Origin: Candidatus Cloacimonadales bacterium
GTDB taxonomy: Bacteria; Cloacimonadota; Cloacimonadia; Cloacimonadales; JAIOQZ01
Reading direction: 5' to 3'
Assembly (NCBI GenBank): GCA_963665815.1
Contig: OY762463.1
Coordinates: forward strand, 576,001 to 640,000
DNA length: 64,000 nucleotides
Both the position numbers and the translations under genes were made by a program. Below are positions 2,305 through 55,860 of the stretch, piece after piece (position 1 is the stretch's first letter; every line of letters begins with the position of its first letter). The notes below the pieces were generated by a model that did no database searches, was not told where the DNA came from, and was given only the letters and a program-made list of their open reading frames with translations.

Positions 2305-4212
<1,908 letters not shown>

Positions 4213-8761: not shown

Positions 8762-10819
8762 CTATTCATCAGAAGATTTGTATTCATCTATTACTTTTTG
8801 AGCTATATCATTAGGAACTTTTTCATAGTGTGAGAACTTCTGATTAAATCTACCACGACCCTGTGTAAGAGACTTAAGAGCAGGGAAGTATTCGTGAAGT
8901 TCAGCAAGCGGAAGCATTGCAGTAAGAATTTGTTTCTTACCAACTTGTTCCATACCGTTGATTTTACCGCGACGTGTAGATACGTCGCCCATTACATCAC
9001 CCATGTACTCGTTAGGGATGATGATCTGCACTTCATGGATAGGCTCAAGAAGAATTGGTTTAGCTTCAGCAAACCCTTTTTGAAGAGCTTGTGATGAAGC
9101 TATTTTGAAGGCCATCTCAGAAGAGTCAACATCATGGTATGATCCGAAGTATACATCAACACTGATATCAACAACGTTGTATCCTGCGATAATACCTTTT
9201 TCCATAGTTTCTTTCACACCTTTTTCAATAGCAGGTATGAATTTACTTGGAATTGTTCCACCAACAATAGAGTTGATGAATTTGAATGCTTCACCACGTG
9301 GAAGAGCTTTAATTCTGAAGTAAACTTCACCGTATTGTCCTCTACCACCTGATTGTTTTTTGTGTTTATAACTTACATCTGCATTACCGACGATAGTTTC
9401 TTTGTAAGGAATCCTTGGGTTTTTAAGGTCTGCCCCAACTTTGTAACGAGATTTAAGACGTTTTACGAGGAGGTTAACCTGTTGTTCTCCGGCACATGAA
9501 ATAACTTGCTCATGTGTTTCACCGTTGAAGTCAGCTGAAATTGTAGGGTCTTCATCAAGAAGTCTGTTAAGAGCTGAACCAATTTTATCTTCATCACTCT
9601 GGTTAGAAGCTTTGATAGATTGCCAGAAGATTGGAGCTGGGATTTCTGGTGTTGGGAATTTGAATTCATTTCCCGGTTTTGTAAGCGTGTTGAGTCCGCG
9701 ACCATATTTCAGCTTAACAAGACCACCGATTTCACCTGCTCTGAGTTCGGATGCATCTTTACGATTTTTCCCGAAGAGGAGATAGATACCACCAATTTTG
9801 TCTTTTGTATCTTTTTCAGGAATGAAAACATCCATTCCACTTTTGATTGTTCCTGAAAGAACTCTTACATATGCAACATCACCAATATTTGGATCTGCAA
9901 ATGATTTAAAGATATAAGCTACAAGATCATCATCTGCTGAAGCAGTGATAACTTTTTCTTCATTATCTTTAACAAGAGTGATTTCTTTTTTATCTGCAGG
10001 AGAAGGAAGATAATCAACAATTGCCTGTGTCAGCTCATTGACTCCAATGTTTTTCCCTGCTGATGTAGCAAATACAGGAATAACAGCACCTTTAGTGATA
10101 CCTTTTTTGAGCCCGGTCATAATTTCAGCATCAGTGAGTTCACCTTCTTCAAAGTATTTTTCGAGAAGATCGTCATCAGCTTCAGCTACGGCTTCCATAA
10201 GCTTCATTCTTGCTTCTTCAGCAAAATCAGCAACTTCAGCAGGAATATCTACAGCCTGACCGTCTATGTAAGCTTTGTTTTTTACTAAATCTACAACACC
10301 TGAAAGAGCTGATTCTTTTCCAATTGGAATCTGTACAGGTGCTAATGTGTAGTCAGTATTTTCCTGAATAAGCTCAATGATTTTAGTAAAATCAGCTTGT
10401 TCGTTATCCATTCTGTTAATAATAACAGCAGTAGAAGCATTAGAATTTTCAATAGCTTCAAATGCAAGTTCAAGACCAACATCAAAAACAGAAGCAGTTG
10501 CACTTGCAACAACAAATGCAGTTTCAGCAGCAGTTACAGCACCAAGAACTTCACCGTAGAAGTCCGGATATCCCGGAGTATCAATAATATTAATACGATG
10601 GCTTTTGTAATCGAAGAACGCTGTACCGAGAGCAATAGACATAGTTTTTTCAATTTCATCCTGGTCATGATCCATTACAGTGTTGCCTTCTTCAATTTTA
10701 CCGACTCTGGTTATAGCTTTCATATTGTAAAGCATGTGCTCGGCAAGGCTGGTTTTTCCGGATCCACTTGAACCGCAGAATACAATGTTACGAATTTTGT
10801 TCAAATCGTAGTTCTTCAT
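8762..10819 (-). CDS. Elongation factor G paralogue (EF-G2 type)
   Basis: Full EF-G architecture (DTPG, KKQSGGRGQYG, SYHDVDSSEMAF, LLEPI) with non-canonical G1 GSSGSGKTSL and G4 NRMD; not in an rpsL-rpsG context. Confidence 0.9.
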   Translation of the reverse strand: MKNYDLNKIRNIVFCGSSGSGKTSLAEHMLYNMKAITRVGKIEEGNTVMDHDQDEIEKTMSIALGTAFFDYKSHRINIIDTPGYPDFYGEVLGAVTAAETAFVVASATASVFDVGLELAFEAIENSNASTAVIINRMDNEQADFTKIIELIQENTDYTLAPVQIPIGKESALSGVVDLVKNKAYIDGQAVDIPAEVADFAEEARMKLMEAVAEADDDLLEKYFEEGELTDAEIMTGLKKGITKGAVIPVFATSAGKNIGVNELTQAIVDYLPSPADKKEITLVKDNEEKVITASADDDLVAYIFKSFADPNIGDVAYVRVLSGTIKSGMDVFIPEKDTKDKIGGIYLLFGKNRKDASELRAGEIGGLVKLKYGRGLNTLTKPGNEFKFPTPEIPAPIFWQSIKASNQSDEDKIGSALNRLLDEDPTISADFNGETHEQVISCAGEQQVNLLVKRLKSRYKVGADLKNPRIPYKETIVGNADVSYKHKKQSGGRGQYGEVYFRIKALPRGEAFKFINSIVGGTIPSKFIPAIEKGVKETMEKGIIAGYNVVDISVDVYFGSYHDVDSSEMAFKIASSQALQKGFAEAKPILLEPIHEVQIIIPNEYMGDVMGDVSTRRGKINGMEQVGKKQILTAMLPLAELHEYFPALKSLTQGRGRFNQKFSHYEKVPNDIAQKVIDEYKSSDE

Positions 10820-11226
10820 TTTTCCCCCGTGTATTTTATGATATATTTTTAAATATTTATACTAATTTAACATAGTTATCAATTTTTTAAATTAATGCAC
10901 AACTTGTCAATGAAATAGATTTGCATTGAAATACATTATGACATTATTATGTTGAATGATCAGTACAAGTCTGCAATATCAATGTTATTCACAGATCACA
11001 TTACAAGCATTCTGTTTTATTGATTAATATTTCACATTCATTAAGTATTAAATACTACCTTTCTGATCTCTATGAAGCAAGTTGTGCTTAAAATTATTAG
11101 AATGAATTATATATGTTGATAAAAGTATCTGAAGAGATTGATTTTATAAAGTTATATTAAGTTTGCTGCAAATTTTTATTGACATATTTTTAATAAATAT
11201 CAATTTTTTTTAAAAAGGAGAAATTT

Positions 11227-11766
11227 ATGAAAAAATTTTTAGTTTCAATTTTATTTGTCTTATTTGTATTTACCGGGCTTTTTGCTGATGCTGCGGTTTT
11301 CTATAATCCGCTTGCACATTATGTTGCAAATGCGAAGAATATTGCATTTGAAGGTGAGATTAACCCTAATACCACTTTCTCTCTATATTATGCAGATACC
11401 GGAATTACAGCACCGGAATATGATGACGTTTGGGTAATATTCTCAGAGCAATACATTGGGGTAAACAGATATTTTAATAAAGCATTTCAAGGTCCATATC
11501 TTGGTCCACAACTCATTTTAACAACAGGATCAATCACAGGGAAAAGCAATTCATTTTACGATTTTTCAAATGTTACTCTCGCAGTAGAAGGCGGTTATGC
11601 TTTGAGATCAGGTAAATTATGTTTAACTCCATTTGCAAAAGTCGGTTATATCTTCACACACAACTTCTACGGACAATTACAGGAATTTGGATCAGGAGAA
11701 GTCGACAAATTAGAACTTGTTGATTTTTCATTCAACTATGGTCTCAAGATTGGAGTTGTATTCTAA
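11227..11766 (+). CDS. Secreted protein, probable small outer-membrane beta-barrel
   Basis: Signal peptide, amphipathic strands, C-terminal GLKIGVVF; AAGGAG RBS. Confidence 0.55.
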   Translation: MKKFLVSILFVLFVFTGLFADAAVFYNPLAHYVANAKNIAFEGEINPNTTFSLYYADTGITAPEYDDVWVIFSEQYIGVNRYFNKAFQGPYLGPQLILTTGSITGKSNSFYDFSNVTLAVEGGYALRSGKLCLTPFAKVGYIFTHNFYGQLQEFGSGEVDKLELVDFSFNYGLKIGVVF

Positions 11767-11787
11767 ATAGAAGCACATATATGATCA

Positions 11788-11821
11788 AAGCCTGTTGGAT
11801 ATTCAGCAGGCTTCTTTTTTT
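11788..11821. terminator. Intrinsic terminator between convergent genes
   Basis: AAGCCTGTTG-GATATT-CAGCAGGCTT stem followed by a T-run. Confidence 0.7.
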
Positions 11822-11827
11822 ATAGAA

Positions 11828-13270
11828 TTATTTAAAACTGTTATTGTAAAACTCCATCAGATTACCTGTCTTTCTCTCTCCAAGTTTTTCAAGAATGGAC
11901 AAGTACAACATAAGAGAATACTCATAAGAGTCTTTTTCTGAATTACAATTATAATAATGAGGTTTGAACTCATCATTCAGGGCAAAATGAGCATAACACA
12001 AAGAGCAAATCTCTTTTATCCAGCAATTCGAGCAGTACTTTTCTTTGAAATCAAAGAATTTCTGCAACATACTCTTTATTTTACTACGATTCACCCATGA
12101 ATCAACATTACCTATCCTGAAACTGTGATCCATCTTTTCGCATACATAGAAATCACCATTAGTTGTGACCATAAGACTTCCATCTTCTGTATCAAGACAT
12201 ATTCCGCCCTTCCTGTAACTATTCTTTCTGAAGTGTATTCTCAACAAGTTCTTCACCGTTTCATCATCAAAGAAATCAAGTCTTTTACTTATAACTCGCT
12301 CAAGTAGATTGTCAAACCTGCTTCTTTTGTATTCATTGGATAGATTTTCATAATATTCTCTATTTTCAGCGAATTTGACTCTTTCATCATGTTTACATAC
12401 AATCATTGAGATTTTCTTAAGCTTATACTCAGGGTTGTTTTCACGATATTTCATCAGTTCCAGATAATCCTCTGTTGTTTCAATTGTAGAAACAAAGTTA
12501 AGTCTTTCTTTGCAAAAATCAGGATACCTTTTCTGAAACAGCTTTATATTATTCATTACCTTATCATATGTTGGCTGATTACAAAGATCTACTCTATTTT
12601 TATTATGCATTTCTTTGGGACCATCTACAGTTACAAGAATCCTTAGATTGTTTTCAACAATGAAATCCTGCATAGCTTTTGTCATTACAGAACCATTTGT
12701 AGTAAAATGATATTCAATATCCAAATCAATTTTATTGATCTCCTCCACGAAGTACTTGATAAGATCAAAATTTAGACAAGGTTCTCCACCGTAAAATCCT
12801 ATTGTCAGCATATCTCCGGCAGTATAAATTTTTTTTATCCATCCTAAGACTTTATTGGCTGTTTCGAATGTCATATTTTCATTGGACAAGTCTTTAGTAT
12901 GGTTATAGTTTTCTCCATATATACAATATTTACATCTGAAGTTGCAGTTATCTGTAACATTAACAGTGAGTAGGTCCGGCTTATAGATACTGTTCTGTTC
13001 TATATTATCCAGAATTTCTATCTTTTTCTTGCGTATATCCTGCCGTACAAATCGTTTACTGAATTCAGAAATATAGTCATATACCTTATCTGCCCCATCT
13101 TCATTATTACTATAACTGATAAAGCTATTCTTAGATAAAGACCATACATTTTCCAGAATATCATCCAGCTTTTGATTTATTTTTAGAATTTCACTTGTAT
13201 CCGAATTATACAGATAATAGTTATCCCTTGTCTTTATTCTCTTCAAATGAGTACTTTCATTGTTTAACAT
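11828..13270 (-). CDS. Radical SAM/SPASM peptide maturase (CcpM-like)
   Basis: CNFRCKYC motif, FYGGEP, TTNGS, VDGPKEMH..NR, SPASM cysteines (GGIC...YVCEK...CSNCWIKEICSLC...C), RRE-like N-terminus (YYLYNSDTSEILKI). Confidence 0.88.
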   Translation of the reverse strand: MLNNESTHLKRIKTRDNYYLYNSDTSEILKINQKLDDILENVWSLSKNSFISYSNNEDGADKVYDYISEFSKRFVRQDIRKKKIEILDNIEQNSIYKPDLLTVNVTDNCNFRCKYCIYGENYNHTKDLSNENMTFETANKVLGWIKKIYTAGDMLTIGFYGGEPCLNFDLIKYFVEEINKIDLDIEYHFTTNGSVMTKAMQDFIVENNLRILVTVDGPKEMHNKNRVDLCNQPTYDKVMNNIKLFQKRYPDFCKERLNFVSTIETTEDYLELMKYRENNPEYKLKKISMIVCKHDERVKFAENREYYENLSNEYKRSRFDNLLERVISKRLDFFDDETVKNLLRIHFRKNSYRKGGICLDTEDGSLMVTTNGDFYVCEKMDHSFRIGNVDSWVNRSKIKSMLQKFFDFKEKYCSNCWIKEICSLCYAHFALNDEFKPHYYNCNSEKDSYEYSLMLYLSILEKLGERKTGNLMEFYNNSFK

Positions 13271-13337
13271 AAAAAATCCTTTATTAATTAAAAGAAGAAA
13301 TCTGATTGTTAATTTTGTTTATTAATTAATGATTAAT

Positions 13338-13517
13338 TTACACACCGTTTGCTGTCATTCCGCCGGTTCTTGTAAAACCACCGGTATTATCGTATGCTGA
13401 CGCTGATTTCTCGCCTGATTTTATACATGCTCTTGTGCATGTACATGTACTAGAAGTCCCTGCTTCTCCAGTAGCCCCTGAGGATACTATAGTTACATCA
13501 TTTAACAAATTTGACAT
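13338..13517 (-). CDS. Putative RiPP precursor peptide, 59 aa, CTCTRAC core
   Basis: ATG at 13517 preceded by AAAGGAG RBS; MSNLLNDVTIVSSGATGEAGTSSTCTCTRACIKSGEKSASAYDNTGGFTRTGGMTANGV; directly upstream of the rSAM gene. Confidence 0.78.
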   Translation of the reverse strand: MSNLLNDVTIVSSGATGEAGTSSTCTCTRACIKSGEKSASAYDNTGGFTRTGGMTANGV

Positions 13518-13565
13518 CTTATCTCCTTTCCCTACTACCCGAATCAGATTTCTTCTACTTTCCAT

Positions 13566-14540
13566 TTATATTGTATATTTGTATATCTTCTCCATTCTGA
13601 TATCGACAATGAACACATATTCATCAGTAATAACAACTGAAGACTCAAAAATTCTGTGTTTTTCAGGTAATTCATACTGCTTTAAAACTTTTCCATTTTT
13701 ATTGATAAGAACCAGACAGGATTGACAAGCCTCTACATTGGTTTTATAGTTTCCGTATTGAATTTCTTTACCATACTTGTTACCATTAATAAATAGCCAG
13801 ATGCCATTATCATTGCTTCCACAAATATATGCTGCCGTCCCATCATCATACTTCAAATCAAGATCAACCAGTTCAAGTATTCGGCTGCTTTCTCCCTCCT
13901 CGAAATATTTAATACTGAATTGATTATCCTTATAGGTAGACGCAAATAAACAATCATCTTCCAACCAGAATGATCGCCCATTCTGATCTTCCTTGAAGTA
14001 TTTCTCAAATCTGGAATACTCTTCAATTTTGTCTTTAGATAGTTTATAAATTTTGTTATCCGGAATCAATTTGTAACCGAAATCTCTACAGTAAACGTTA
14101 CCTCCGGAGACAATTAAATTATCTGTTCTAACATTACTGAATTCACTGATATACTTTCCATCATAATCAAATAAAGATACTCGGGAGTTTCCAATATCGC
14201 ATACATATAGTATTGAATCTTCAGTTCCTGTTATTGAAACAACCTGAAAGAATTCTCCTGGTCCACGCCCTTCATTTCCAAATTTTGAGATGAGACTTAA
14301 ATCATCAACATTGTACATGTAAATACCATTAAACTCATCTGCGACGTATAAACGATCATCAATTACAGTTAAATCCATTGCAAAAGACATATCAAAATCC
14401 AGACTATCAGCAGAGGTTAAATACTTGATTGAGTCATTACTATCAGAGCATGAAATTATGAGAAAACAATTAACTGAAAGCATGAGAAACATAACAATAA
14501 AATGAAGTCTTCCTTGTGATTCTACATTAACAATATTCAT
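13566..14540 (-). CDS. 6-bladed (NHL-like) beta-propeller lipoprotein
   Basis: Lipobox-like LIISC; LYVAD, FGNEGRGPGEF, LYVCDIGNSRVSLFDYDGKYI. Confidence 0.75.
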   Translation of the reverse strand: MNIVNVESQGRLHFIVMFLMLSVNCFLIISCSDSNDSIKYLTSADSLDFDMSFAMDLTVIDDRLYVADEFNGIYMYNVDDLSLISKFGNEGRGPGEFFQVVSITGTEDSILYVCDIGNSRVSLFDYDGKYISEFSNVRTDNLIVSGGNVYCRDFGYKLIPDNKIYKLSKDKIEEYSRFEKYFKEDQNGRSFWLEDDCLFASTYKDNQFSIKYFEEGESSRILELVDLDLKYDDGTAAYICGSNDNGIWLFINGNKYGKEIQYGNYKTNVEACQSCLVLINKNGKVLKQYELPEKHRIFESSVVITDEYVFIVDIRMEKIYKYTI

Positions 14541-14807
14541 ATTACACCTTTTTATGGATTAAGTCCATATATTTTTCTACAAGAAATGCCTTATTTGTTA
14601 AGACCTTTGCATAATTGTTAAATCAAAAAAAATCAACCAGTATGTAAGCTCTTATATTATCATTTTTTTACTAAAGATTCATTTTTATGTCAATAAAAAA
14701 AATATTCCGGATAGAGATTTATCAATACTTGAAATGAATATAAAAATGAAAGCTAAATATAGGTAAAAATTCAGAAAATACAGTATTATAAATAGTTATA
14801 TTAAATG

Positions 14808-16346
14808 CTAATTCTTAATCTTAACTGACAACTCCGTTATCCTGTTACCATTAACAGCATAAAGGCATTTTTTAACATGATCATACTCACTGATCATTTC
14901 GATATCATCCATAAAGGAATACGTTGATATTACCTTTCCGTCAACACTACTTACAAACTCTATTTTCATGCCGGTTATTCTCAACAATACACTATTCTTC
15001 AGTCTTTTCTCTTCAAAGAAAGATATCTGAATCGGGAAGACAGTCTTTCCCAGTCTTTTAACCGGATTATATTCTACTGATTTTCTCCAGATTTCTTCAC
15101 CTGTTTTTCTGTTAATGCAAATCTCTTCTTTTTTTCCGCATAACAGAATTCTATTGCCATCAATGAGTTCTGTATGTAAAATATTTTGTCCTGCTGCATA
15201 TTCCCATTTCTTTCTGAAACTCCTTCTCATATAAGCAGTCAAAGTATTACCTGTACAAACATAAAGATGTTTTATGTCAAACATTGGACTGGAGCATACA
15301 CTATTTTCCATCACAATAGAATCCGTGCTTTCAACAATAATTTCTTTCGCAGGCTGAGTCATTTTACTGAGATAATCCTGAATAAACTCTTCTACTTTTT
15401 CTTTCTCAAACTTCGGATACAATTCTTTCATTCTTGTTGTTACATTAAGAGTAATATCTTCAATATCAGTATTTCTGATGTTCTCCTGAATAAGTGTCTT
15501 AAGGATTGAAAGCTGATTCTCAACTTCTCTATTGCCGAACATATTGTACATAACAGATGATATCAGAAGAGCAGTAATAATGATTGTTCCTATAGTTTGA
15601 GCCTTTATCTTGAAGAAAGATTTCCCTTTCTCGTATTTTGCCGGAACAGTAAACAAACAGTATGGATAAGGATTAATAAGATATACTTCTTTCAGATTCT
15701 CCTCAATTGTTCTTGGATGAATTCCTTTTGCCAGAAGTTTTTCAGTTGCACCTGAAAACAGAATTGTAAACATTTCTGCATCAGTTAACTCAACTTTATA
15801 TACTGGTATTTTAATATCAACGCTTTCTGCACCTAAGAGATTAAGTTCTTTCTGGGATTTTACTCTGGCATTATCCCACTTCTCACCTATTTGACTGAAG
15901 AGATCTTCTTCAGAATTTCTTTTTACAATACCACAAAGCATTCTCCCAAACTGTACAATGTATATTCTGTTCTCATAACTCATCATGAAGCATAAAGAAA
16001 GCCCCTTCTCATTAACTTTTGAGAAGATGTTTTTGTTTTTCTCAGATAGATTCTCAGCTGTCTTGAAAGCAATCTGTTTGAACAGATTGCTTAACTGCCA
16101 GTTCAGTTTCTGAAAAACATCTTTCAACTGAGATTCAATGCCTGATTCTTTCCAGTCATTTTTCAGCAGCTCATTCAGAATAATCTGATTAATCTGTTTT
16201 AATCTGTAATCAGAGTTATATGAATGAGTAAGTAAAGCAAAATTGCGATTCCTGTTCTGAAAAAAATCAGTATATACATAGTAATTGTTTACGGAATCAT
16301 TATTCTCCTGACTATTATTCTCGGAAAATGCCTGCAGACACAGCAT
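14808..16346 (-). CDS. Membrane protein: degenerate PP2C-like N-terminus, TM helix, PQQ-type propeller-like C-terminus
   Basis: GLSLCFMM...IYIVQFGR resembles PP2C strands without the acidic metal ligands; TM near aa 250-270; INRKTGEEIWR repeat. Confidence 0.4.
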   Translation of the reverse strand: MLCLQAFSENNSQENNDSVNNYYVYTDFFQNRNRNFALLTHSYNSDYRLKQINQIILNELLKNDWKESGIESQLKDVFQKLNWQLSNLFKQIAFKTAENLSEKNKNIFSKVNEKGLSLCFMMSYENRIYIVQFGRMLCGIVKRNSEEDLFSQIGEKWDNARVKSQKELNLLGAESVDIKIPVYKVELTDAEMFTILFSGATEKLLAKGIHPRTIEENLKEVYLINPYPYCLFTVPAKYEKGKSFFKIKAQTIGTIIITALLISSVMYNMFGNREVENQLSILKTLIQENIRNTDIEDITLNVTTRMKELYPKFEKEKVEEFIQDYLSKMTQPAKEIIVESTDSIVMENSVCSSPMFDIKHLYVCTGNTLTAYMRRSFRKKWEYAAGQNILHTELIDGNRILLCGKKEEICINRKTGEEIWRKSVEYNPVKRLGKTVFPIQISFFEEKRLKNSVLLRITGMKIEFVSSVDGKVISTYSFMDDIEMISEYDHVKKCLYAVNGNRITELSVKIKN

Positions 16347-16355
16347 AATAGCCTC

Positions 16356-17438
16356 CTATGTCCACCATCTGAAAAATGATCTGTAAGTAACTCTTATTAA
16401 TGTAGGAATATCCATCAGCATGTTTGTGTAAGATGCGTTGGCAAGAGGACAATAGCATTCTTTATTTTTTATGGCTATTCTCTCTTTAACCATTTCCTTT
16501 GAGTTCCATATCTTCCTGAAGTTATATTTATGGTCCCTGAGATTCCCTACTGATTTTGCTTTTATACAACATGCCCATACTTCTCCATCCGGAGAAATCT
16601 GTACAGAAGTAATACCTGCATAACATGGAATAATCTGAGTTTTATCTCTGAGTATTTTCTTTACCAGATTGTAATATTCTATCCTGAATGCCTGAGTAAT
16701 CTTGGACATCCCGGTGTATTTGTTGTTTTTAATCCTGTGAATAAGAAAATCTATGGCAGAACGATAATCCAAAACCGTTGGAGTAATTCCGGAACCAATA
16801 GTATCCAGCTCAACTCGTTCTTCTGCAATCTCAGTAATGTAAGAATCAGGTTCCATATTCATTAGGGTATTTGCTATTTTTGCAAAGTTCTTAACATTGA
16901 ATCTGGAGATGACAGTATGGAATCCTATTGAGAAGTTAGGAGATTCTATCTCTCTGAGACGCTTATAAGTAGCAAGGACTTTCTCATAATTACCTTTAAC
17001 ATTTCTGATATTATCATGTTCTTCAGCAATGCCATCAATTGAGAGATTTATAATGATCTGTGTTTTCTTACAGTAATTTACTATTTCCAATACGCTCTGA
17101 GCAATTTTATCTGTCAAAATTCCGTTTGTTGGAATATTAATTATTTTAGGGCGACAGTAATCATATGCCATTTTGCAGATTTCTACTATTTCCTTATGAA
17201 GAAATGGTTCCCCACCACTTAATGTAAACCAGTATGGAGAATGACTGATGGACTTAAATACTTTTCTGTATTCATCCAGAGTAAAATTATCTGCTTTTTT
17301 GCGATAGATATTACATGTACTGCACTTTGAGTTACATCTATATGTAAGACTGATTGTGTAATTCATCGGCATTATTCTTGGAAAACCAAGAGCTCTGAAA
17401 CATTTATAAGCAAATATTTTAGGAATTATTTCCAACAT
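16356..17438 (-). CDS. Radical SAM protein with SPASM/twitch domain
   Basis: CNSKCSTC, LSGGEPF, PTNG, SIDG, CYAG...DGEVWACC, CYCP. Confidence 0.85.
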   Translation of the reverse strand: MLEIIPKIFAYKCFRALGFPRIMPMNYTISLTYRCNSKCSTCNIYRKKADNFTLDEYRKVFKSISHSPYWFTLSGGEPFLHKEIVEICKMAYDYCRPKIINIPTNGILTDKIAQSVLEIVNYCKKTQIIINLSIDGIAEEHDNIRNVKGNYEKVLATYKRLREIESPNFSIGFHTVISRFNVKNFAKIANTLMNMEPDSYITEIAEERVELDTIGSGITPTVLDYRSAIDFLIHRIKNNKYTGMSKITQAFRIEYYNLVKKILRDKTQIIPCYAGITSVQISPDGEVWACCIKAKSVGNLRDHKYNFRKIWNSKEMVKERIAIKNKECYCPLANASYTNMLMDIPTLIRVTYRSFFRWWT

Positions 17439-17441
17439 AAC

Positions 17442-18332
17442 TTAGACCTTCCTGGATAAATTCTTTGTAGACTCGGCAATATCCCATTTAAAAGGATTCT
17501 TCTTGAGCAGATTGAAATCAATCCAGCCAAGAACTCTTCCGTATATTTCAAGCATCATTGTTGCTGCAAGTCTGCAAGTATTCATTGGGTGAATTGCAAT
17601 CTCTGCCAACATAATTTCCAGAAGAAGCATGGAATTTTGAGATGTAACCTGATAATTGTGCTCTTTCTTCAACCAGATATGACCGGCAGCAATTCTTCTT
17701 CTCTGCTTAATAAAATCTTCGATATTTTCAGGACCTTTATTGTGTACAATTGCTGAAGGAATATAAACTTTCCTGAGACCCTGTTCTTTTATCACAGCTT
17801 CTATACTGGCTTCATCAACCGCACTTTCTTCCGGAATGGATTTTACAACATTCCTGAAAGCAATCATTTCACCCAGTTTGGGCTCATGTAATGCCATAAT
17901 ATGATGAAAATGCCACATGATATTTACAGCATAGCCTACCAGTGTATCATCCGGGTTTTCAGGTACAGGTCTTCCCCCGCTCATGCCAACTTCGGGATTA
18001 TCAAACACTGAAATCATTTTTTCTACCGTTGTTGGAGCAGGAATAGTATCACCGCTCTCAATTACGAGTGTTTCTGAATTTGCAGCTTCCAGAAACATGT
18101 TTATTGCAGCGGATTTTCCACGTCTTTCAGGTTCTGTAATCAACTTTATACGCTTATCTTTCTGTTCATATTCTTTGACAATATCATCTGTTCGATCTGT
18201 ACAGGCACTGGATACAACGAAAATTTCTTTAATACAGACTTTCTCAAGCTCCTGTTTCAAAAGTGCATCAAGCAGCTTGGAAATATTCTTTTCCTCATTG
18301 TATACAATAACGCCTATACTACAGTTAATCAT
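17442..18332 (-). CDS. Glycosyltransferase family 2
   Basis: SIGVIVYNEEKNI, CTDRT, GKSAAIN, QRRRI; start placed at MINCS (18332), overlapping the nusB stop. Confidence 0.85.
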   Translation of the reverse strand: MINCSIGVIVYNEEKNISKLLDALLKQELEKVCIKEIFVVSSACTDRTDDIVKEYEQKDKRIKLITEPERRGKSAAINMFLEAANSETLVIESGDTIPAPTTVEKMISVFDNPEVGMSGGRPVPENPDDTLVGYAVNIMWHFHHIMALHEPKLGEMIAFRNVVKSIPEESAVDEASIEAVIKEQGLRKVYIPSAIVHNKGPENIEDFIKQRRRIAAGHIWLKKEHNYQVTSQNSMLLLEIMLAEIAIHPMNTCRLAATMMLEIYGRVLGWIDFNLLKKNPFKWDIAESTKNLSRKV

Positions 18333-18789
18333 CTTTCTTTCCCTTATCATCCCTGTTTTCATGGGCGATTGTATTCAATACACCATTTATGAATTTCCCG
18401 GATTTATCAGAACAGAATTTCTTGGCCACTTCTATAGCCTCATTTATGATTATCGGAGACGGTACCTCTGAAAAAAGAATCTCACCTGTAGCAATTCTCA
18501 TAATATTTTTGTCGAGAATAGCTATTCTGTCAAACTTCCAGTTCTTGGCGTATTTACCGATTTCTTCATCTATTGCTTCTATGTTTGATAAAGTTGTTTT
18601 TAGAAGATTATCGGCAAAAGTGAATATTCCACTTTCGATTTCAATATTGTTTGACTCTGCCACATCGTTCAACACTTCAGTATATTGTCCGATGTATGCC
18701 AGATTGCCAAGAACCGGATCCTCTTCGTTGAAGTCCAGTATGTATAATGTCTGTAAAGCTACTTCTCGAGCTTTTCTGCGAATTCCCAT
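18325..18789 (-). CDS. nusB: Transcription antitermination factor NusB
   Basis: RRKAREVALQTLY, DKNIMRIA, INEAIEVAKKF, FINGVL. Confidence 0.93.
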   Translation of the reverse strand: MGIRRKAREVALQTLYILDFNEEDPVLGNLAYIGQYTEVLNDVAESNNIEIESGIFTFADNLLKTTLSNIEAIDEEIGKYAKNWKFDRIAILDKNIMRIATGEILFSEVPSPIIINEAIEVAKKFCSDKSGKFINGVLNTIAHENRDDKGKKDD

Positions 18790-38139: not shown

Positions 38140-39417
38140 CTATTTCATCATAATAAGTTTTTTAGTTGCTGATCCTTCACTTGTGATAATTCTGGCAAAG
38201 TACACACCGGAAGCTGAATTGCCACCATTATCATCTTTACCGTTCCATTTTACACTGTGATTACCTGAAGTGAAATGTCTGTCTGCAAGAGTTCTTACTT
38301 TCTGACCTCTGATGTTGTATATTGAGATGTTTACGTTTGATTCATTTTTAAGGTTAAAAGCCAGATTGGTTTCCGGATTAAATGGATTAGGGTATACACT
38401 GAGTTCAATGTTAAAATGAACAACTTCATTCTGTTCGTTTGCAACAGGCATCGGATTATGGTAAACAATATCTGTTACACCAACGCCAACCGTGAAAGTC
38501 AAAGTCTGATTAAATGCGTTATTAATATCATATACGTAAATATGAGAGTTCTGGATATAATCTACAGCATCTGCTGAAACAAGCAGGTTGTCATGACCTG
38601 TAATTACGTTTCCACCGGAGAAAGAACCTGTTGCAGAACTCAGATCAGACATATTGAATGCGAAAACATCTGCAGGGTAAGAATTACCGAGGAAGAGATA
38701 GTTGTCTGTCAAGTAGATTGAACCCGGGGCATTCTGACAATCGAAAGTCTGTTCCAGAGAATCTGAGGATGCATTGTAAATGTCCACTTTACCTGTTTCA
38801 GTATCGAAGTTTCCTGTGCAGACAACATAGTATTTATCATTTCTGAAAACTACATTTCGCGGATTAGTTGAGCAGTTGATGATTGAGTCTGATGTGAAAT
38901 CATTCAGGTTGATTTTATAAACTTCACCCTGTCCATAACTCCAGTCACCAGGATTGAAACCTGTGCAGGCGACATACAGGTAGTTATTATAGATAGCCAT
39001 TCCTTCCGGTGCTCTACCAACGTTAACTGTACCGAGAATTGTACCGTTCTGCAGATCGACTTTGTATACTTTATCCAGGTCGTTACTGTTAACATAGGCT
39101 GTATCACCATCGATCACGAAGTAGTTAGGACTTGAGCTATCTTCCATATAGATGTAACAGGTGTTTGACGGATTATCCAGATCGATTTTCTGAAGAGCGT
39201 TTTCGTAAGTTATTACAACAATAGCATAGTTGTTCCAGATTCGAACGATGTTTGGAGCTGATTCCTGTCCCTGCCCCAGCATGGCAAAAGCATTGTTGAC
39301 CTGACTGGTAGCAGCATCATATTTACTGAGTGTTTCGGACTCGGAGTTAACAACATAATAATCGGCAAATAATAATGATGTGATAAAAAGTATTGTTAAG
39401 AGAATTCTGATTCGCAT
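38140..39417 (-). CDS. YncE/BtuG-like beta-propeller with C-terminal PNPFNP FlgD-Ig domain
   Basis: Signal peptide, VGRAPEGMAIY..YLYVA repeats, YPNPFNPET...WNGKDD..SGVYF CTD; directly downstream of the cobalamin riboswitch. Confidence 0.8.
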   Translation of the reverse strand: MRIRILLTILFITSLLFADYYVVNSESETLSKYDAATSQVNNAFAMLGQGQESAPNIVRIWNNYAIVVITYENALQKIDLDNPSNTCYIYMEDSSSPNYFVIDGDTAYVNSNDLDKVYKVDLQNGTILGTVNVGRAPEGMAIYNNYLYVACTGFNPGDWSYGQGEVYKINLNDFTSDSIINCSTNPRNVVFRNDKYYVVCTGNFDTETGKVDIYNASSDSLEQTFDCQNAPGSIYLTDNYLFLGNSYPADVFAFNMSDLSSATGSFSGGNVITGHDNLLVSADAVDYIQNSHIYVYDINNAFNQTLTFTVGVGVTDIVYHNPMPVANEQNEVVHFNIELSVYPNPFNPETNLAFNLKNESNVNISIYNIRGQKVRTLADRHFTSGNHSVKWNGKDDNGGNSASGVYFARIITSEGSATKKLIMMK

Positions 39418-42104: not shown

Positions 42105-42794
42105 ATGAGAAAATTGTTTTTATTTGTTTTTTTAGTTTGTCTTAGCACTGTTTGTATTGCTGAAGAAAGACCGGATTCAATATTGGCCGTTACTCTTGTA
42201 TCATTTAATTTAAGCACTTCCATAGGATTAGACCTTCAAGTATCATGGTCTACTGCTCAGGAGACAAATGTTCTAGGATATAGAATTTATCGAAATACAA
42301 CGAATGATTTTACTACAGCCCTTCCCTTGTTCAATGATTTGATAAGTGCAACAAACACAGATTCCATGGCTTACTACACATATAATGATCTTACCGTACA
42401 AAACAGTCATACTTACTATTACTGGCTCAGTGCTGTTGATTTTGCTAATACGAATTTACTGTTCGGACCTTTGGATGTTGAGTTTGCAATAATAGGTTAT
42501 GATGATAATTATTTGGCAGAAAGTCTCACAAACCTCAAAAACGCTTACCCGAATCCATTCAACCCGGAGACCAAAATAGAACTTTCCATTAAAGATAACG
42601 AAACCGGCGAACTCACTATCCTGAATATTAAAGGGCAGGTAATAAGACGAATTACCAATCTTACTGCCGGAAACCATACTTATACATGGAACGGCACAGA
42701 TGAAACAGGTAAGGACGTAGCTTCCGGAATTTACTACTACAGTCTTAAAACCCAAACTACTGATATACTGAAGAAAATGGTGTTGATTAAGTAG
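42105..42794 (+). CDS. Secreted protein with PNPFNP FlgD-Ig C-terminal domain
   Basis: Signal peptide, VTLVSF...WSTAQETNVLGYRIYR, AYPNPFNPET...WNGTDETG..ASGIYYY. Confidence 0.8.
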   Translation: MRKLFLFVFLVCLSTVCIAEERPDSILAVTLVSFNLSTSIGLDLQVSWSTAQETNVLGYRIYRNTTNDFTTALPLFNDLISATNTDSMAYYTYNDLTVQNSHTYYYWLSAVDFANTNLLFGPLDVEFAIIGYDDNYLAESLTNLKNAYPNPFNPETKIELSIKDNETGELTILNIKGQVIRRITNLTAGNHTYTWNGTDETGKDVASGIYYYSLKTQTTDILKKMVLIK

Positions 42795-49369: not shown

Positions 49370-50566
49370 TTATTTAACAATCCTGTATTTCCTGTAAAGA
49401 TTATTGAAAATAACTGAAATCTCTTCCCCATTTCCGGAAATCTGAAGATTAGGGTTGAAGTCAAGGTGTTTCCAAGATTTTATTGTTGTAAGTTTGTCCT
49501 TGAAAAGTAACTTTGATTTGCGGTAATCAATTATATATAAGGATTCTTCGAAAATTTCAGCAGCTATACCGGAGTCACTGTCTGCAAGAAATAGACAACC
49601 TCCCCCTTTTAGTTCAACAACATCCCCACTGTTAATATCGACTATCATTCCCTCTTCACTGTTACTGCAGAAGAATAATTTCTCATCTATTGAAAAACCG
49701 GCATTACAGAAATTACCCTGCACCCTTGCACATTCTTTACCACGTTTATCAATTAGAACAGTTTCACTGTTACAACATATCAGAACATAATCCTTACTTT
49801 CACTTGTAACAAATTTGTGATGCGTTTTCTCTGGAGCAAAATACTTATGTGATACTGAATCATTTCTGCTAATGAAGAATACTCCTTCATTACTGTTTAC
49901 ATTATCACTCCCCTCACTTATATCATCATTAATAAAAATCCTTGCTTCAATATCGTTCATGTAATATGCAATACATCCAGAAGTTCCGGCATCAACGATA
50001 TTCATCTCATCCTCATAGACTCTAACCCTTTCACCGGTTTTGATGTTGAAAATTCTGTTTTGATCAAGAGAATAAAATGAATTATAGAACCCATTTTCGT
50101 TAATCCTTAATGGTGCATGATTCTTTACAGATGATTTAATTTTTTTGTAGGATGAAGCATTAAATGAATAGAAATCTGCAAATGTCTCATAGCTAATGAA
50201 ATCATTTGTATCAACTTCATAGGAGCAAACGTATTTCCCATACTCAGAAAAAGCCACATGTTCTGCAGAAATAACTTCAGGTGAGGACAAAATCCCACCA
50301 AACAGCAAAAGCTCAGATACATCCTGTCCCTGATTCAGTTTATAAAGATCATGACTATACCAGACAAGCATCAAATCTCCACTGTTATGTTCATCTGGTT
50401 CTGTAAAAGCTGATTTAACTACCGGATAACTGAATCTATATTCCTCGGTGACAGTATAATTGCAGATTTGTTCTTGTGATCTGATATAACTCATGTTAAT
50501 GAGTAAAGAATCATTTGCGAACATATTGGACACTACAAAAAACATAAAATATCTTATCAACTTCAT
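49370..50566 (-). CDS. Hypothetical secreted protein, possibly beta-propeller
   Basis: Signal-like N-terminus; FSxxG-type blade motifs (AFSEYGKY, GFSIDEK, ISGNGEE). Confidence 0.5.
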   Translation of the reverse strand: MKLIRYFMFFVVSNMFANDSLLINMSYIRSQEQICNYTVTEEYRFSYPVVKSAFTEPDEHNSGDLMLVWYSHDLYKLNQGQDVSELLLFGGILSSPEVISAEHVAFSEYGKYVCSYEVDTNDFISYETFADFYSFNASSYKKIKSSVKNHAPLRINENGFYNSFYSLDQNRIFNIKTGERVRVYEDEMNIVDAGTSGCIAYYMNDIEARIFINDDISEGSDNVNSNEGVFFISRNDSVSHKYFAPEKTHHKFVTSESKDYVLICCNSETVLIDKRGKECARVQGNFCNAGFSIDEKLFFCSNSEEGMIVDINSGDVVELKGGGCLFLADSDSGIAAEIFEESLYIIDYRKSKLLFKDKLTTIKSWKHLDFNPNLQISGNGEEISVIFNNLYRKYRIVK

Positions 50567-50682
50567 TATTCCTCACTTACCCTGAATACTGTTAACAAAT
50601 TTCTATAATATAATTATAAGATAATTGAGAAATGTTTTACAGCAAGTGCTAAAACAGAAAAATTACAGGATTTTGGTCATTC

Positions 50683-50756
50683 CTCAACACAAACGAACCC
50701 AAAGAACTTGTAAAACAACTGACGGAAACTATAGAGACTTATTATAAGAATAGGTA
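50683..50756 (+). repeat. 74-bp direct repeat, copy 2
   Basis: Near-identical to 49233-49306. Confidence 0.92.
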
Positions 50757-50825
50757 GGTAACAATTAGCTTTATGCAATCATCTTTCAAGACTAGTAGTT
50801 TAAAACATTGAAAATTTGAATATAC

Positions 50826-50853
50826 AAAAAAGGAGTAACGAATTACTCCTTTT
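50826..50853 (-). terminator. Intrinsic terminator
   Basis: AAAAAAGGAGTAA-CGAA-TTACTCCTTTT. Confidence 0.8.
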
Positions 50854-50872
50854 AAATTTATAAGATAGTTTT

Positions 50873-51640
50873 CTATCTAGCTGTTTCTTCATGAACCTTA
50901 TTTCTGTAATAATCAACCATTCTTTCTTTCATTTTCTTGTTTTCTTCAAAAATGCGCTCAGCATTTTTTCCGGATGAAACAATATTCCCTGTTCCTCCGG
51001 CATGTTCGTATATTAGTTCATATACCCAGAAAACATCATTCAGAAAATAAACTAACTGTCCTAATGACAGATAGTAATCAGTATATCTTTCCTGTGATGA
51101 AGGCAGCCAGTTGGCAGGCAATGTAACTCCTCTATCCGAGGAATCCAGCATTTTATATTTATCACCAGATTCATCATCAATAAAATAAGAACCCCATATA
51201 CACAATTCATCAGGATTATTATCCAGATCCCATGATATTGGATAAGACGATGAAGGATCATACGTTTCGGGATACGATATGTTCTGAAATTCTGATGCTC
51301 TGACAAAGTCTACATTAATTTCATCTGTACTATCTATAAGACAGGATATGCTCAGAGTATCACCATAATTTGACTCAATACTGCCGTAGCAATAGTAGTT
51401 TCGACTTGAAAGATCAACTTCTACAGTTTGTCCATTTACTTCTAATTCAACTGACTGCATATCTGTTTCGTCAACCTTAGACACATAAAACATCGCATCT
51501 TCACCAACCTGGAATATGCTGATTTCGTATTTCGATCTGTCTTCTTCAAATCCGGTAATAAGATAGTTCTTGCTACCTCCATCATCCTTACAAGCAAAGA
51601 TTGAGATTAACAGTAATACAATTAATAAATGTTTTAACAT
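50873..51640 (-). CDS. Lipoprotein, paralogue of 51679-52455
   Basis: Lipobox IFAC; shares EDRSKYEI, INVDFxR, WxLxNNPDEL, FWxYE. Confidence 0.75.
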   Translation of the reverse strand: MLKHLLIVLLLISIFACKDDGGSKNYLITGFEEDRSKYEISIFQVGEDAMFYVSKVDETDMQSVELEVNGQTVEVDLSSRNYYCYGSIESNYGDTLSISCLIDSTDEINVDFVRASEFQNISYPETYDPSSSYPISWDLDNNPDELCIWGSYFIDDESGDKYKMLDSSDRGVTLPANWLPSSQERYTDYYLSLGQLVYFLNDVFWVYELIYEHAGGTGNIVSSGKNAERIFEENKKMKERMVDYYRNKVHEETAR

Positions 51641-51678
51641 ACTTTCTCCTTATTTTGTTTCTTACTATTCGTTAATTA

Positions 51679-52455
51679 TCAATATCTTATCTTTTCTCGA
51701 AACTCCTCAACAATCATCTTCTTAATATTCTCCTTATATTCCTCTTCCTCAGGAGATTTCATTGATTCGGACTTATTCTCCCCGGAAACATAGTAGGTTC
51801 CAAGAACCTTATCTTCTATCTCGTATATCCAGAATGTATCGTCCAGATAGTAGTTCATGCTTCCTAAAGCAAGATAAAAAGAATAGGTTGAGTGAATTTC
51901 TCCTAGCCAACCACCGGGAACAGTGTAAGAACGAGCGGAATTAGAGAGAATTTTATATTTAGTCAAAAGATGATCAGTATTATCTGTACCATCATCCCGC
52001 ATACCTACTATGTACAGTTCATCTGGATTATTTGCCAGTTCCCAGGAAGCATCAACCTGGTTATTGGGATTGTACTTGGGAGTAAATTCCAGATTCACAA
52101 AATTTGAACGACGCTGAAAGTCTACATTTATCGAATCAACCCCGTCAATAACACAATTTATATTCAGCATTTCATCATAATCTGAGTCAATGAGACTATA
52201 TCCTGAATTACCTGATTCACCTATATTAAATCCGACAGGTGTATCGTTTATTATCAAGTCAATTGTTTGAAACTGCGTTTTATCAACTTTATATACAAAC
52301 AGATATGTACTGCTTGAAATCTGCTGAATCTCTATTTCGTACTTTGATCTGTCCTCGCCCAATGAGGTTACTAAATACATTTTGCTTGATTTATCATCAC
52401 TGCATCCTAAGAAAGTAAGGACAACTGCTAACAAAAATATTTTTTTTAACATCAT
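51679..52455 (-). CDS. Lipoprotein, paralogue of 50873-51640
   Basis: Lipobox FLGC; same shared motifs. Confidence 0.75.
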   Translation of the reverse strand: MMLKKIFLLAVVLTFLGCSDDKSSKMYLVTSLGEDRSKYEIEIQQISSSTYLFVYKVDKTQFQTIDLIINDTPVGFNIGESGNSGYSLIDSDYDEMLNINCVIDGVDSINVDFQRRSNFVNLEFTPKYNPNNQVDASWELANNPDELYIVGMRDDGTDNTDHLLTKYKILSNSARSYTVPGGWLGEIHSTYSFYLALGSMNYYLDDTFWIYEIEDKVLGTYYVSGENKSESMKSPEEEEYKENIKKMIVEEFREKIRY

Positions 52456-52476
52456 ACTTCCAATGGAATATAACTA

Positions 52477-53703
52477 TCATTCAACATCTTCAAATTTATA
52501 ATACATTCTATTGCTATAATTACTTGCACAGTTCTCGGTATCCGTAAATACAGGAACATAGGTAGAATCTTCACAAGCTGAAATTTCTATTCGGCTATAA
52601 TTGTTAGTTTTGTAAAAGGCAATAGAGTTCCATTCATTACTATAATCATACTCAAATCTATCCTCGGTTACCAGGTACTCAGGATTGCCCCGATAACCTT
52701 TTATAATGAAATGTCTGTAAGAACTATTGTTCCACATCATTATTTTCATCATATTTTCCGGTATATTAAAAAGGTAAGTATAATTTCTATCACTTAAATT
52801 GAGTCTCTCAGATATCTCAATATCAGATCCTAATCGTCCATTTTCTGACTTGATTCCGCAAGTTCTCCATGTAACATTAAAAGAGTTCTGATAAAATCCA
52901 ACCGGATAGTATTTACTTTCTACATTTGTGTCAATAAAAAAAGAATCAATGTTTGAAACTTCGACATCAACGCGAGAGTCGAATAGTTGTTTCTGAAAAT
53001 ATATACATCTATTAAAAACTATTTCTCTTTGCAATTCAGCATATTCACCGGTATTATCCCAGCATTTAATTAAAAGATCTTTCTTCCCCGGAGGATGGAT
53101 AAAAACATTCCAACTGGCTGATGTAGGTTGGTTGTTATAAATTTGTCGAACAATTTCATCATTACAATGAACTTCTATATAACCGTGTCCGTTTTCGTCA
53201 AAAACACCAATATCCAGATCTACCAGTCCATATATCGTATCTGCTTCAGAAGAAGGACTATTAAACCATACTTCAGGAGGAACCCCATCTTTACTGCATG
53301 TTGTAAACGTATGGATATCCGTGTAATATCTGATTTCATTATAATTATCATCATCTAATGCAGCATATTCCCAGTAGTACTGAGTATTATTCTTAAGCTG
53401 TATCTCTGCAATATATATTGAGTCTACATCCGACCATATGTCATTTGGACTATCTAAAAACGGCGGATTAGAAGTATCGAGATAGAAATAGTGCTGATTA
53501 GTATTTATGTTTTTTCTTTTAATCCTGAAAACGGGAAATACCGACACACTGTCAGCACCTGCTTCAGGAGCAAATTCAGTTATGTAGTTGTTTTCATAAT
53601 TTGAATAATAATCACAGCATTCATCATAACAACCTGCAAGAATGAACATAACTACAAAGAGCATTAAAATTTTGACTGAAAGTGATAGTTTGAAGATACT
53701 CAT
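52477..53703 (-). CDS. Lipoprotein with FN3/Ig-like domains, paralogue of 53700-54956
   Basis: Lipobox LAGC; VSVFPVF, FYLDTSNPP, LKNNTQYYWE, FTT, PEVWFNSP. Confidence 0.7.
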   Translation of the reverse strand: MSIFKLSLSVKILMLFVVMFILAGCYDECCDYYSNYENNYITEFAPEAGADSVSVFPVFRIKRKNINTNQHYFYLDTSNPPFLDSPNDIWSDVDSIYIAEIQLKNNTQYYWEYAALDDDNYNEIRYYTDIHTFTTCSKDGVPPEVWFNSPSSEADTIYGLVDLDIGVFDENGHGYIEVHCNDEIVRQIYNNQPTSASWNVFIHPPGKKDLLIKCWDNTGEYAELQREIVFNRCIYFQKQLFDSRVDVEVSNIDSFFIDTNVESKYYPVGFYQNSFNVTWRTCGIKSENGRLGSDIEISERLNLSDRNYTYLFNIPENMMKIMMWNNSSYRHFIIKGYRGNPEYLVTEDRFEYDYSNEWNSIAFYKTNNYSRIEISACEDSTYVPVFTDTENCASNYSNRMYYKFEDVE

Positions 53704-54956: not shown

Positions 54957-54982
54957 AAACCCTCCATCTATATAATAAATTA

Positions 54983-55855: not shown

Positions 55856-55860
55856 TATGC

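Follow-up and report, generated by a model that had tools for sequence, protein, structure and literature searches.

Which product is made by a locus that sets a radical S-adenosylmethionine (SAM) enzyme beside a short cysteine-containing peptide and a surface lipoprotein, and does the lipoprotein belong to the same machinery as the other two? The question is raised by a 64,000-nt stretch of contig OY762463.1 of a Candidatus Cloacimonadales bacterium (positions 576,001 to 640,000), here called the window, in which three co-oriented minus-strand genes encode, in this order, a beta-propeller lipoprotein, a 59-aa peptide and a radical SAM/SPASM enzyme, with gaps of 48 nt between the propeller and peptide genes and of 67 nt between the peptide and enzyme genes. 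A preliminary description made from the sequence alone had proposed this arrangement as a system for a peptide made on the ribosome and modified after translation (RiPP), and all three genes lie where it had placed them. Radical SAM/SPASM cassettes with a cysteine peptide occur frequently, and a secreted antimicrobial is the assumed product of most of them; unusual here are an enzyme from a lone lineage, an orphan precursor with three cysteines and a propeller lipoprotein as the sole accessory gene. On balance, the evidence inclines us to regard the locus as a compact set of genes for making a ribosomal peptide and modifying it by radical SAM chemistry; in it, the peptide would be the substrate, the enzyme would form thioethers and the propeller would bind the peptide. 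Similar propellers adjoin related maturases in distant phyla. If the propeller is a functional partner, the locus would represent a new class of RiPP accessory protein and a minimal three-gene model; if it is not, the locus would be another uncharacterised cluster of the sactipeptide- or ranthipeptide-like kind.

The class of the enzyme is clear. The Pfam model Radical_SAM (PF04055) matches it with an E-value of 8.3e-16 and 59 bits (cut-off 29.5), and the CxxxCxxC motif is formed by C109, C113 and C116, which are invariant in all 27 aligned sequences (the enzyme and 26 relatives). Residues 340-480 match the SPASM models TIGR04085 (34.5 bits, cut-off 27) and PF13186 (22.0 bits, cut-off 21.5; 21.1 bits when the whole protein is scanned); the SPASM cysteines C358, C377, C413, C416, C422 and C425 are invariant in the same 27 sequences, and C442 is conserved in at least 90% of them. 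Both cysteine sets had been read from the letters in the preliminary description, which had asked for the TIGR04085 search as a check, and both are borne out; the segments that it quoted as recalling CcpM, a family of Cys-rich-peptide maturases, are likewise present in the enzyme. By sequence, the nearest solved structure is that of the thioether synthase CteB (5wgg; E 6.8e-19), with which all seven SPASM cysteines align, and the second nearest is the anaerobic sulfatase-maturating enzyme (anSME; E 3e-14). An AlphaFold model built on the 27-row alignment (predicted local distance difference test, pLDDT, 78.3) has CteB 5wgg as its top Foldseek match (E 1.8e-20, template modelling score 0.56, 17% identity in the structural alignment), followed by anSME, ChlB, TigE, SuiB and SkfB; the fold of the epimerase EpeE is also among the matches. 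At the N-terminus, which had been called similar to a RiPP recognition element (RRE), the model has three strands (residues 9-13, 18-22 and 27-31) and three helices (33-42, 47-54 and 60-72), with a pLDDT of 59-91 over the block, and this predicted beta3-alpha3 arrangement of residues 9-72 has an RRE-like topology.

Among the NCBIfam models, the best match is CcpM (TIGR04068), which covers residues 10-463 end to end with 215.6 bits (E 1.2e-63) against a cut-off of 500. It is followed by RumMC (NF035951; 162.8 bits, E 1.2e-47, cut-off 720), which is also the best model for the SPASM part alone, by TIGR04148 (160.1 bits, E 9.5e-47, cut-off 300), PapB (NF047865; 130 bits, E 1.1e-37, cut-off 340), QhpD (121.4 bits, E 3.8e-35, cut-off 453) and the SCIFF maturase (TIGR03974; 97.4 bits, cut-off 425), and the cyclophane-forming YhhB, GrrM and AmcB models match more weakly (E 1e-14 to 1e-17). 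Membership in CcpM, RumMC, PapB, SCIFF, QhpD or TIGR04148 was considered and rejected, every score being under its cut-off. The earlier label of a CcpM-like maturase is right in that CcpM is the best family model and wrong if taken as membership, since the proposed TIGR04068 search ended far short of its threshold. Taken as a set, the matches support the assignment of the enzyme to the peptide-maturase type of radical SAM/SPASM proteins.

The peptide gene has the marks of a real gene. An AAAGGAG Shine-Dalgarno site lies 5 nt upstream of its ATG, as had been noticed in the preliminary description, and none precedes the ATG at 13565, from which an alternative reading of 75 aa would start. The GC content of the open reading frame (ORF) is 0.42 versus 0.13 in the downstream spacer. 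When the 295-nt spacer was shuffled 20000 times, a same-strand ORF of at least 59 codons arose in 405 cases; of 20000 Markov sequences, 607 had one, and an origin by chance is thus unlikely (2-3% by length alone). Cys25, Cys27 and Cys31 stand in the string CTCTRAC, and in the tail after it Gly, Thr, Ser and Ala are abundant; the presumed core includes Tyr42 and Phe48, and the peptide has no Trp. The first 20 or so residues would be the leader and the remainder the core. A Sec signal was considered for the N-terminus and rejected, as it has neither a basic n-region nor a long hydrophobic stretch.

For comparison, genomes of GTDB were scanned with the alignment of the enzyme; at least 600 stretches matched, confirmation succeeded for at least 588, and the top 80 make up the 79 loci compared here (L001 to L079 in our numbering), among which the genome of the window is not represented. 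The preliminary description had asked for precursors beside close homologues of the enzyme. There are no close homologues, and the comparison relies on relatives that are 22-31% identical to the window enzyme, with two partial matches reaching 38-40% in their best segment. A search of 5.8 billion protein clusters agrees with this: it gave 73 matches at E <=1e-3 among 4645 candidates, the best non-self match had 31% identity over 76% of the query, and no relative exceeded 32% identity across most of its length. NCBIfam models were run on 76 of the 79 locus enzymes, L003 (internal stop) and L023 and L046 (masked residues) being excluded. The CcpM cut-off was reached by 30 of the 76, the TIGR04148 cut-off by four (L014, L019, L042 and L076, with scores of 418-538) and the RumMC cut-off by none; 14 had, like the window enzyme, no match at E 1e-75. 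A maximum-likelihood tree, built quickly from 75 enzymes without the partial or masked L003, L012, L023, L043 and L049, gives the window enzyme a long branch (1.08) and places it outside the core CcpM clade (37 rows; Shimodaira-Hasegawa-like approximate likelihood ratio test, SH-aLRT, 97).

The preliminary description had made its reading depend on the recurrence of a small cysteine ORF beside related enzymes, and such ORFs do recur. With clustered-Cys ORFs defined as frames of 30-110 aa on the enzyme's strand, outside larger ORFs, at most 500 nt from the enzyme and with three or more Cys in a stretch of 12 residues, one adjoins the enzyme in 44 of the 79 loci. Their density is 5.78 per 10 kb near the enzyme versus 0.76 in the flanks more than 1.5 kb away, a 7.6-fold difference, and the window peptide fits the same description. 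Many loci of the CcpM type have an upstream Cys-rich peptide that begins MKKLGKK. The peptides of these loci cannot be aligned with that of the window, so that they support it by kind and not by homology: tblastn of the peptide on the 79 loci gave no match, and a MAFFT alignment with seven peptides of related loci shows 13-27% identity and one invariant Cys, a vaguely similar layout that does not count as evidence. As a separate observation, L004, L022 and L068, which fall in one enzyme clade (SH-aLRT 100), each have a two-Cys peptide ending C-x-[DE]-E-C-V-G-G-T-A, which indicates that precursors with few cysteines exist in this enzyme superfamily.

The propeller gene was likewise described correctly as encoding a lipoprotein of the NHL type. 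Its product has a signal peptide and a lipobox, and the lipobox Cys31 and a G-x-GPG motif are invariant in all 11 aligned propellers. The Pfam family DUF5128, '6-bladed beta-propeller', matches it with 25.5 bits (cut-off 22.9), the TolB_like score is slightly under its cut-off, residues 65-157 match TRIM and Thin NHL repeat structures (E 2e-15), and the nearest protein atlas clusters carry the name '6-bladed beta-propeller' (score 0.94). A single-sequence model of the protein is poor (pLDDT 55.1), and the blade number therefore rests on the family models, not on the fold. Three relatives were found in sequence searches, with 40% (P0076), 41% (P0077, on another contig of 92.7 kb) and 31% identity.

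A homologue of this propeller adjoins the enzyme in six of the 79 loci (L014, L019, L064, L075, L076 and L079). Direct searches found propellers beside the enzyme in L014, L064 and L076, the last with two copies; a local hidden Markov model (HMM) was then built from eight propellers, five of which came from the found loci and match it by construction, and it added L019, L075 and L079. The DUF5128 cut-off is passed by the propellers of L014, L019, L064 and L075 and by both copies in L076 (37-79 bits), and that of L079 was recognised by the local HMM and has no Pfam match. Signal peptides are present in 7/7 locus propellers and a lipobox-like Cys in 6/7, L075 being ambiguous. Three of the six loci are from Bacteroidales, all of them TIGR04148 members, two from Aminicenantes and one from a Heimdallarchaeote; a propeller is present in all three TIGR04148 loci with usable upstream sequence, the fourth (L042) having 191 nt upstream. 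Among ORFs of at least 150 aa, 6 of 143 first neighbours of the enzyme match the propeller versus 1 of 355 others (one-sided Fisher test, p 0.003); the single match further away is the tandem copy of L076, and every match is on the enzyme's strand. Each propeller-bearing locus examined also has a small cysteine ORF beside the enzyme, and in L019 the order is that of the window: propeller, peptide, enzyme. The recurrence beside related enzymes makes the link more than a local accident, and the comparative data support the propeller as a recurrent third component in a subset of Cys-peptide radical SAM cassettes. The label 'propeller-adjacent' requires 4 changes on the enzyme tree against a mean of 6.8 after shuffling, with 1 of 500 shuffles as low, and well-supported branches force 2 of these changes; a common origin of the cassettes that bear a propeller would be consistent with this. 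In L064, the maturase appears to be split, its ORF 439-1617 having no SPASM end, which is found in ORF 1709-1900; a frameshift or a fault in the assembly could be the cause. Downstream of it, two lipoprotein genes (1897-2892, DUF5128, and 3047-4042, no family) precede pieces of an ABC transporter.

The peptide gene has a further, unexpected feature. A perfect 15-nt inverted repeat brackets it, with one arm in each of the gaps that separate it from the propeller and enzyme genes, and the 15-mer occurs at these two places only within the window. Shuffling of the 70-nt flanks never gave 15 nt (0 of 300; longest 11). In the predicted RNA fold of 13575..13275, the arms pair as a long-range stem in both the minimum free energy and the centroid structures, enclosing the Shine-Dalgarno site and the peptide ORF (z -4.24; 0 of 100 shuffles fold as well). 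The predicted stem could be an element of mRNA processing or stabilisation that would set the amount of peptide mRNA independently of the enzyme's. Among 36 candidate precursors of related loci, a long bracket (12 nt) surrounds that of L079 only, and the others have 4-9 nt. We note separately that this locus with the 12-nt bracket (1026-1223 and flanks) is also one of those that bear a propeller.

From these elements a course of events can be proposed. The leader of the 59-aa peptide, about 20 residues long, would be held by the RRE-like winged-helix domain at the N-terminus of the enzyme, which would cleave SAM at the CxxxCxxC cluster and abstract a hydrogen from a residue downstream. With the help of two auxiliary SPASM clusters, the sulfur of Cys25, Cys27 and Cys31 would be joined to carbons of the C-terminal tail in up to three thioethers, of the sactipeptide or ranthipeptide type, and the product may be a small knotted hairpin. 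Leader removal and export would be carried out by genes elsewhere. The propeller is expected to fold outside the cytoplasm, where it would most likely meet and bind the finished peptide after export; its candidate roles are retention, self-protection and reception. When residues 32-324 of the propeller, its mature part, were co-folded with the 59-aa peptide on an 11-row alignment and without controls, the score was 0.01 and the mark 0.32, a result that speaks neither for nor against binding. A bolder extension, to which we give a small chance, is that DUF5128/NHL propellers are a conserved cross-phylum extracytoplasmic captor, that the RiPP is a tethered ligand or subunit instead of a free bacteriocin, and that the window holds the minimal module, complete with its 15-bp stem.

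How does the cassette compare with known systems? The closest in its parts is the Bacteroidales cassette of TIGR04148, TIGR04149 and TIGR04150 (a maturase, a cysteine peptide with a Gly-Gly leader and a pseudo-radical SAM protein), whose maturase is in the same broad clade as the window enzyme. A small cysteine peptide with C-x-C lies beside the enzyme in L014 and L019, and a DUF5128 propeller is part of the cassette, scoring 55-79 bits in L014, L019 and L076 against 25.5 in the window. The differences are substantial: the window enzyme has 160.1 bits where 300 are required; its peptide has neither a TIGR04149 match nor a Gly-Gly leader, whereas the L014 peptide scores 33.4 (cut-off 25); no TIGR04150 match occurs in seven scanned neighbours, the second radical SAM protein of the window having been compared by its best 25 families, whereas L014 has one of 293.2 bits; no ATP-binding cassette (ABC) exporter with a C39 peptidase was seen in the window; and the host is not a member of the Bacteroidales and uses Shine-Dalgarno sites. 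In L014 itself, the full cassette has its propeller between precursor and maturase and is followed by a 773-aa ABC-type ORF, and in L076 a LanC-like fragment, a glycosyltransferase and a Peptidase_C39/ABC exporter are encoded as well. To our knowledge, a DUF5128 propeller is not a curated criterion of this system. For Bacteroides fragilis, the accessible part of PMC4573289 gives a 'putative lipoprotein' gene after the TIGR04149 peptide. The terms 'propeller' and 'lipoprotein' are absent from a 2023 survey of Bacteroidales RiPPs (PMC10352776), as is 'propeller' from PMC8939145, and the literature searched, which does not extend to the TIGRFAM and Pfam family texts or to the 2011 paper of Haft and Basu, does not discuss a propeller as part of the cassette.

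For CcpM and the CLI_3235-type peptides of Clostridia, with TIGR04065 presumably the model of the partner precursor, the likeness lies in the top-scoring model and in a domain plan shared with the window enzyme; the latter nevertheless reaches 215.6 of 500 bits and falls outside the core clade, and its peptide has just three Cys and another leader and is accompanied by a propeller lipoprotein. RumMC (ruminococcin C), CteB (thermocellin) and PapB, synthases of sactipeptides and ranthipeptides, are related through CteB, which leads the solved structures in both the sequence and the fold comparison, and through RumMC, the second-best model, whereas the scores for RumMC, PapB and SCIFF are far below the cut-offs. 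As far as the available text of PMC8172795 shows, ruminococcin C has a Cys-x-Cys donor pair followed by an acceptor tail of small residues, the same layout as in the window peptide, and its links Cys3-Asn16 and Cys5-Ala12, nested thioethers from the Cys-x-Cys pair, form a hairpin. This product class is defined by Cys sulfur bound to the Calpha, Cbeta or Cgamma of another residue, and the putative links in the window peptide could be of any of these kinds. By these comparisons, the cassette is a new and divergent variant of the Cys-peptide radical SAM cassettes of the sactipeptide/ranthipeptide-like kind, and it fails the curated score of each system.

Several results weigh against the cassette reading. 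A word-index search of 5.8e9 clusters and a full phmmer/HMMER pass over 1.84e9 representatives each returned the peptide itself alone, and with a singleton, conservation cannot support family status, its cysteines or its expression. The new precursor family proposed in the preliminary description is therefore sound in so far as no known precursor model of NCBIfam or Pfam matches the peptide, and fails in so far as a family cannot be demonstrated. Metagenome annotation often leaves small ORFs uncalled, and for this reason the absence of relatives is weaker evidence than it appears. No named maturase family has a curated cut-off that the enzyme reaches; in the tree, whose deep nodes are weak, it falls in a weak 14-member group (SH-aLRT 80) with L079 plus the TIGR04148 clade (SH-aLRT 94) and several unclassified enzymes, and has no well-supported sister. 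Because it combines such scores with a long branch and no well-supported sister, chemistry cannot be transferred to it with confidence. Its RRE-like N-terminus agrees with the predicted fold and found no match in the proposed model search, at E up to 1 in NCBIfam or 10 in Pfam. As had been observed, no protease or exporter lies nearby; in addition, a survey of the whole window's ORFs of 90 aa or more showed no C39 exporter, no leader protease and no gene of the immunity type.

The place of the propeller is also in question. It may be a mere neighbour, one of the many DUF5128-type lipoproteins of the Fibrobacterota-Chlorobiota-Bacteroidota (FCB) group, beside a pair formed by peptide and enzyme. 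No propeller was seen in 73 of the 79 related loci, and atlas clusters of such propellers are numerous in Bacteroidota, Rhodothermota and Aminicenantota. P0076, its 40%-identical paralogue, lies on the same 3.96-Mb contig outside the window, and no enzyme paralogue from that contig is among the matches of the 5.8-billion-cluster search; such propellers thus also occur without such an enzyme. The paralogue and the 73 loci weigh against the cassette reading, too, yet the gene is co-oriented and 48 nt from the peptide start, the sole long spacer (267 nt) is 5' of the propeller, matches cluster among the first neighbours of the enzyme, on its strand, in members of the Bacteroidales and Aminicenantes and in a Heimdallarchaeote, and 3/3 TIGR04148 loci with usable upstream sequence have one, so that we judge a bystander unlikely. 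An equally doubtful proposal makes the cross-linked peptide a structural or cofactor subunit that is assembled with the propeller lipoprotein, as in quinohemoprotein amine dehydrogenase, one subunit of which is a beta-propeller. The propeller is the sole conserved extra gene and recurs beside related enzymes in several phyla, no exporter or immunity gene of the bacteriocin type was seen, and the QhpD model matches the enzyme. According to the part of PMC8172795 available, QhpD, a radical SAM/SPASM enzyme, thioether-links the cysteines of a small subunit (QhpC), which is later joined by larger partners and comes to lie with them outside the cytoplasm. The QhpD score is nevertheless far under its cut-off, the peptide offers no Trp that could give a quinone cofactor, and there is no quinone logic, no cytochrome or dehydrogenase partner and no protease or exporter gene; moreover, the Bacteroidales propeller cassettes carry an exporter, a putative one in L014 (the 773-aa ABC-type ORF) and the Peptidase_C39/ABC protein in L076, which points to a secreted product there.

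Two further explanations concern the peptide and the reaction. The enzyme may modify the peptide without Cys thioethers, by cyclophane C-C links, epimerisation or another radical reaction, with the Cys forming disulfides or binding metal. SPASM maturases have diverse chemistries, the enzyme is outside all curated families, it matches YhhB, GrrM and AmcB, if more weakly, and the EpeE fold, and Tyr42 and Phe48 are in the core. This is improbable, however, as the five top family models and the top solved fold all act on Cys-rich or Cys-thioether peptides, and clustered-Cys peptides are what the related loci have in common. Very improbable is the proposal that the small ORF is non-genic or does not encode the substrate, and that the enzyme matures a protein (the propeller or an unlinked target) in the manner of anSME. 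The singleton status of the peptide, the 2-3% chance of an ORF this long and the place of anSME as second among the solved relatives would be in line with it; against it stand a strong and well-spaced Shine-Dalgarno site with coding-like GC, the beta3-alpha3 domain predicted at the N-terminus of the enzyme, a cysteine small ORF at each propeller-bearing locus examined, and an inverted repeat that frames exactly the peptide ORF. We accordingly retain the cassette for a radical-SAM-modified peptide as the preferred explanation of the locus.

The features of the cassette and its flanks are collected in Table 1. The spacer upstream of the propeller gene is presumed to contain the promoter of the cassette; a scan for the sigma-70 consensus found 41 sites versus 39.1 expected from shuffles, a number no higher than chance. 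At the other end, the terminator that had been said to close the cassette did not hold up: the hairpin there has 11 pairs (5 of them GC), a loop of 4 and the plus-strand tail CTTTTTTTAT, and on the minus strand an A-run precedes it. Since the T-run is on the plus strand, it is the terminator of the convergent gene, and for the cassette it is bidirectional at best.

Table 1. Features of the cassette and its flanks, in descending order of position in the window
Feature	Position	Strand	Basis or remark
Family-2 glycosyltransferase	17442-18362	-	overlaps nusB
Second radical SAM/SPASM protein, 360 aa	16356-17438	-	under every NCBIfam cut-off
Membrane protein, 512 aa, PQQ-like propeller part	14808-16346	-	conserved family
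AT-rich spacer, 267 nt	14541-14807	-	5' of propeller gene
NHL/DUF5128-type six-bladed beta-propeller lipoprotein, 324 aa, lipobox Cys31	13566-14540	-	family models and alignment
Inverted repeat, 5' arm, perfect 15 nt	13542-13556	-	RNA fold and shuffles
Precursor-like peptide, 59 aa, Cys25/Cys27/Cys31	13338-13517	-	Shine-Dalgarno site, GC, context
Inverted repeat, 3' arm, perfect 15 nt	13293-13307	-	pairs with 13542-13556
Radical SAM/SPASM peptide-maturase-like enzyme, 480 aa	11828-13270	-	family models, alignment, fold
GC-rich hairpin between convergent genes	11788-11813		T-run on plus strand
Convergent gene, 179 aa	11227-11766	+	signal peptide, C-terminal aromatic residue, no family match

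Upstream of the spacer, ribH and nusB are followed by three tightly packed minus-strand genes (14808-18362), for a glycosyltransferase, a second radical SAM/SPASM protein and a 512-aa membrane protein whose nearest atlas cluster is most frequent in Candidatus Cloacimonadota. This trio may be a unit separate from the cassette, to judge from the 267-nt spacer and from how the 512-aa protein is conserved. An Rfam scan of 10800-15200 gave nothing at E <=0.1, and the search for flanking direct repeats that would mark a mobile insertion gave merely short, chance-like pairs. The sole ABC ATPase seen in the window adjoins a TonB-type receptor at 25.4-28.3 kb, 13 kb off the cassette. Together with this receptor, type IX secretion sorting domains, FlgD_ig domains and a C25 peptidase are marks of an FCB-group diderm in the window. 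The sorting domains are on the proteins encoded at 38140-39417 and 42105-42794, and on the minus strand at 49370-59733, six lipoprotein-like genes without a Pfam match lie 3' of the gene for a 1290-aa C25 peptidase with a C-terminal domain of the FlgD_ig type.

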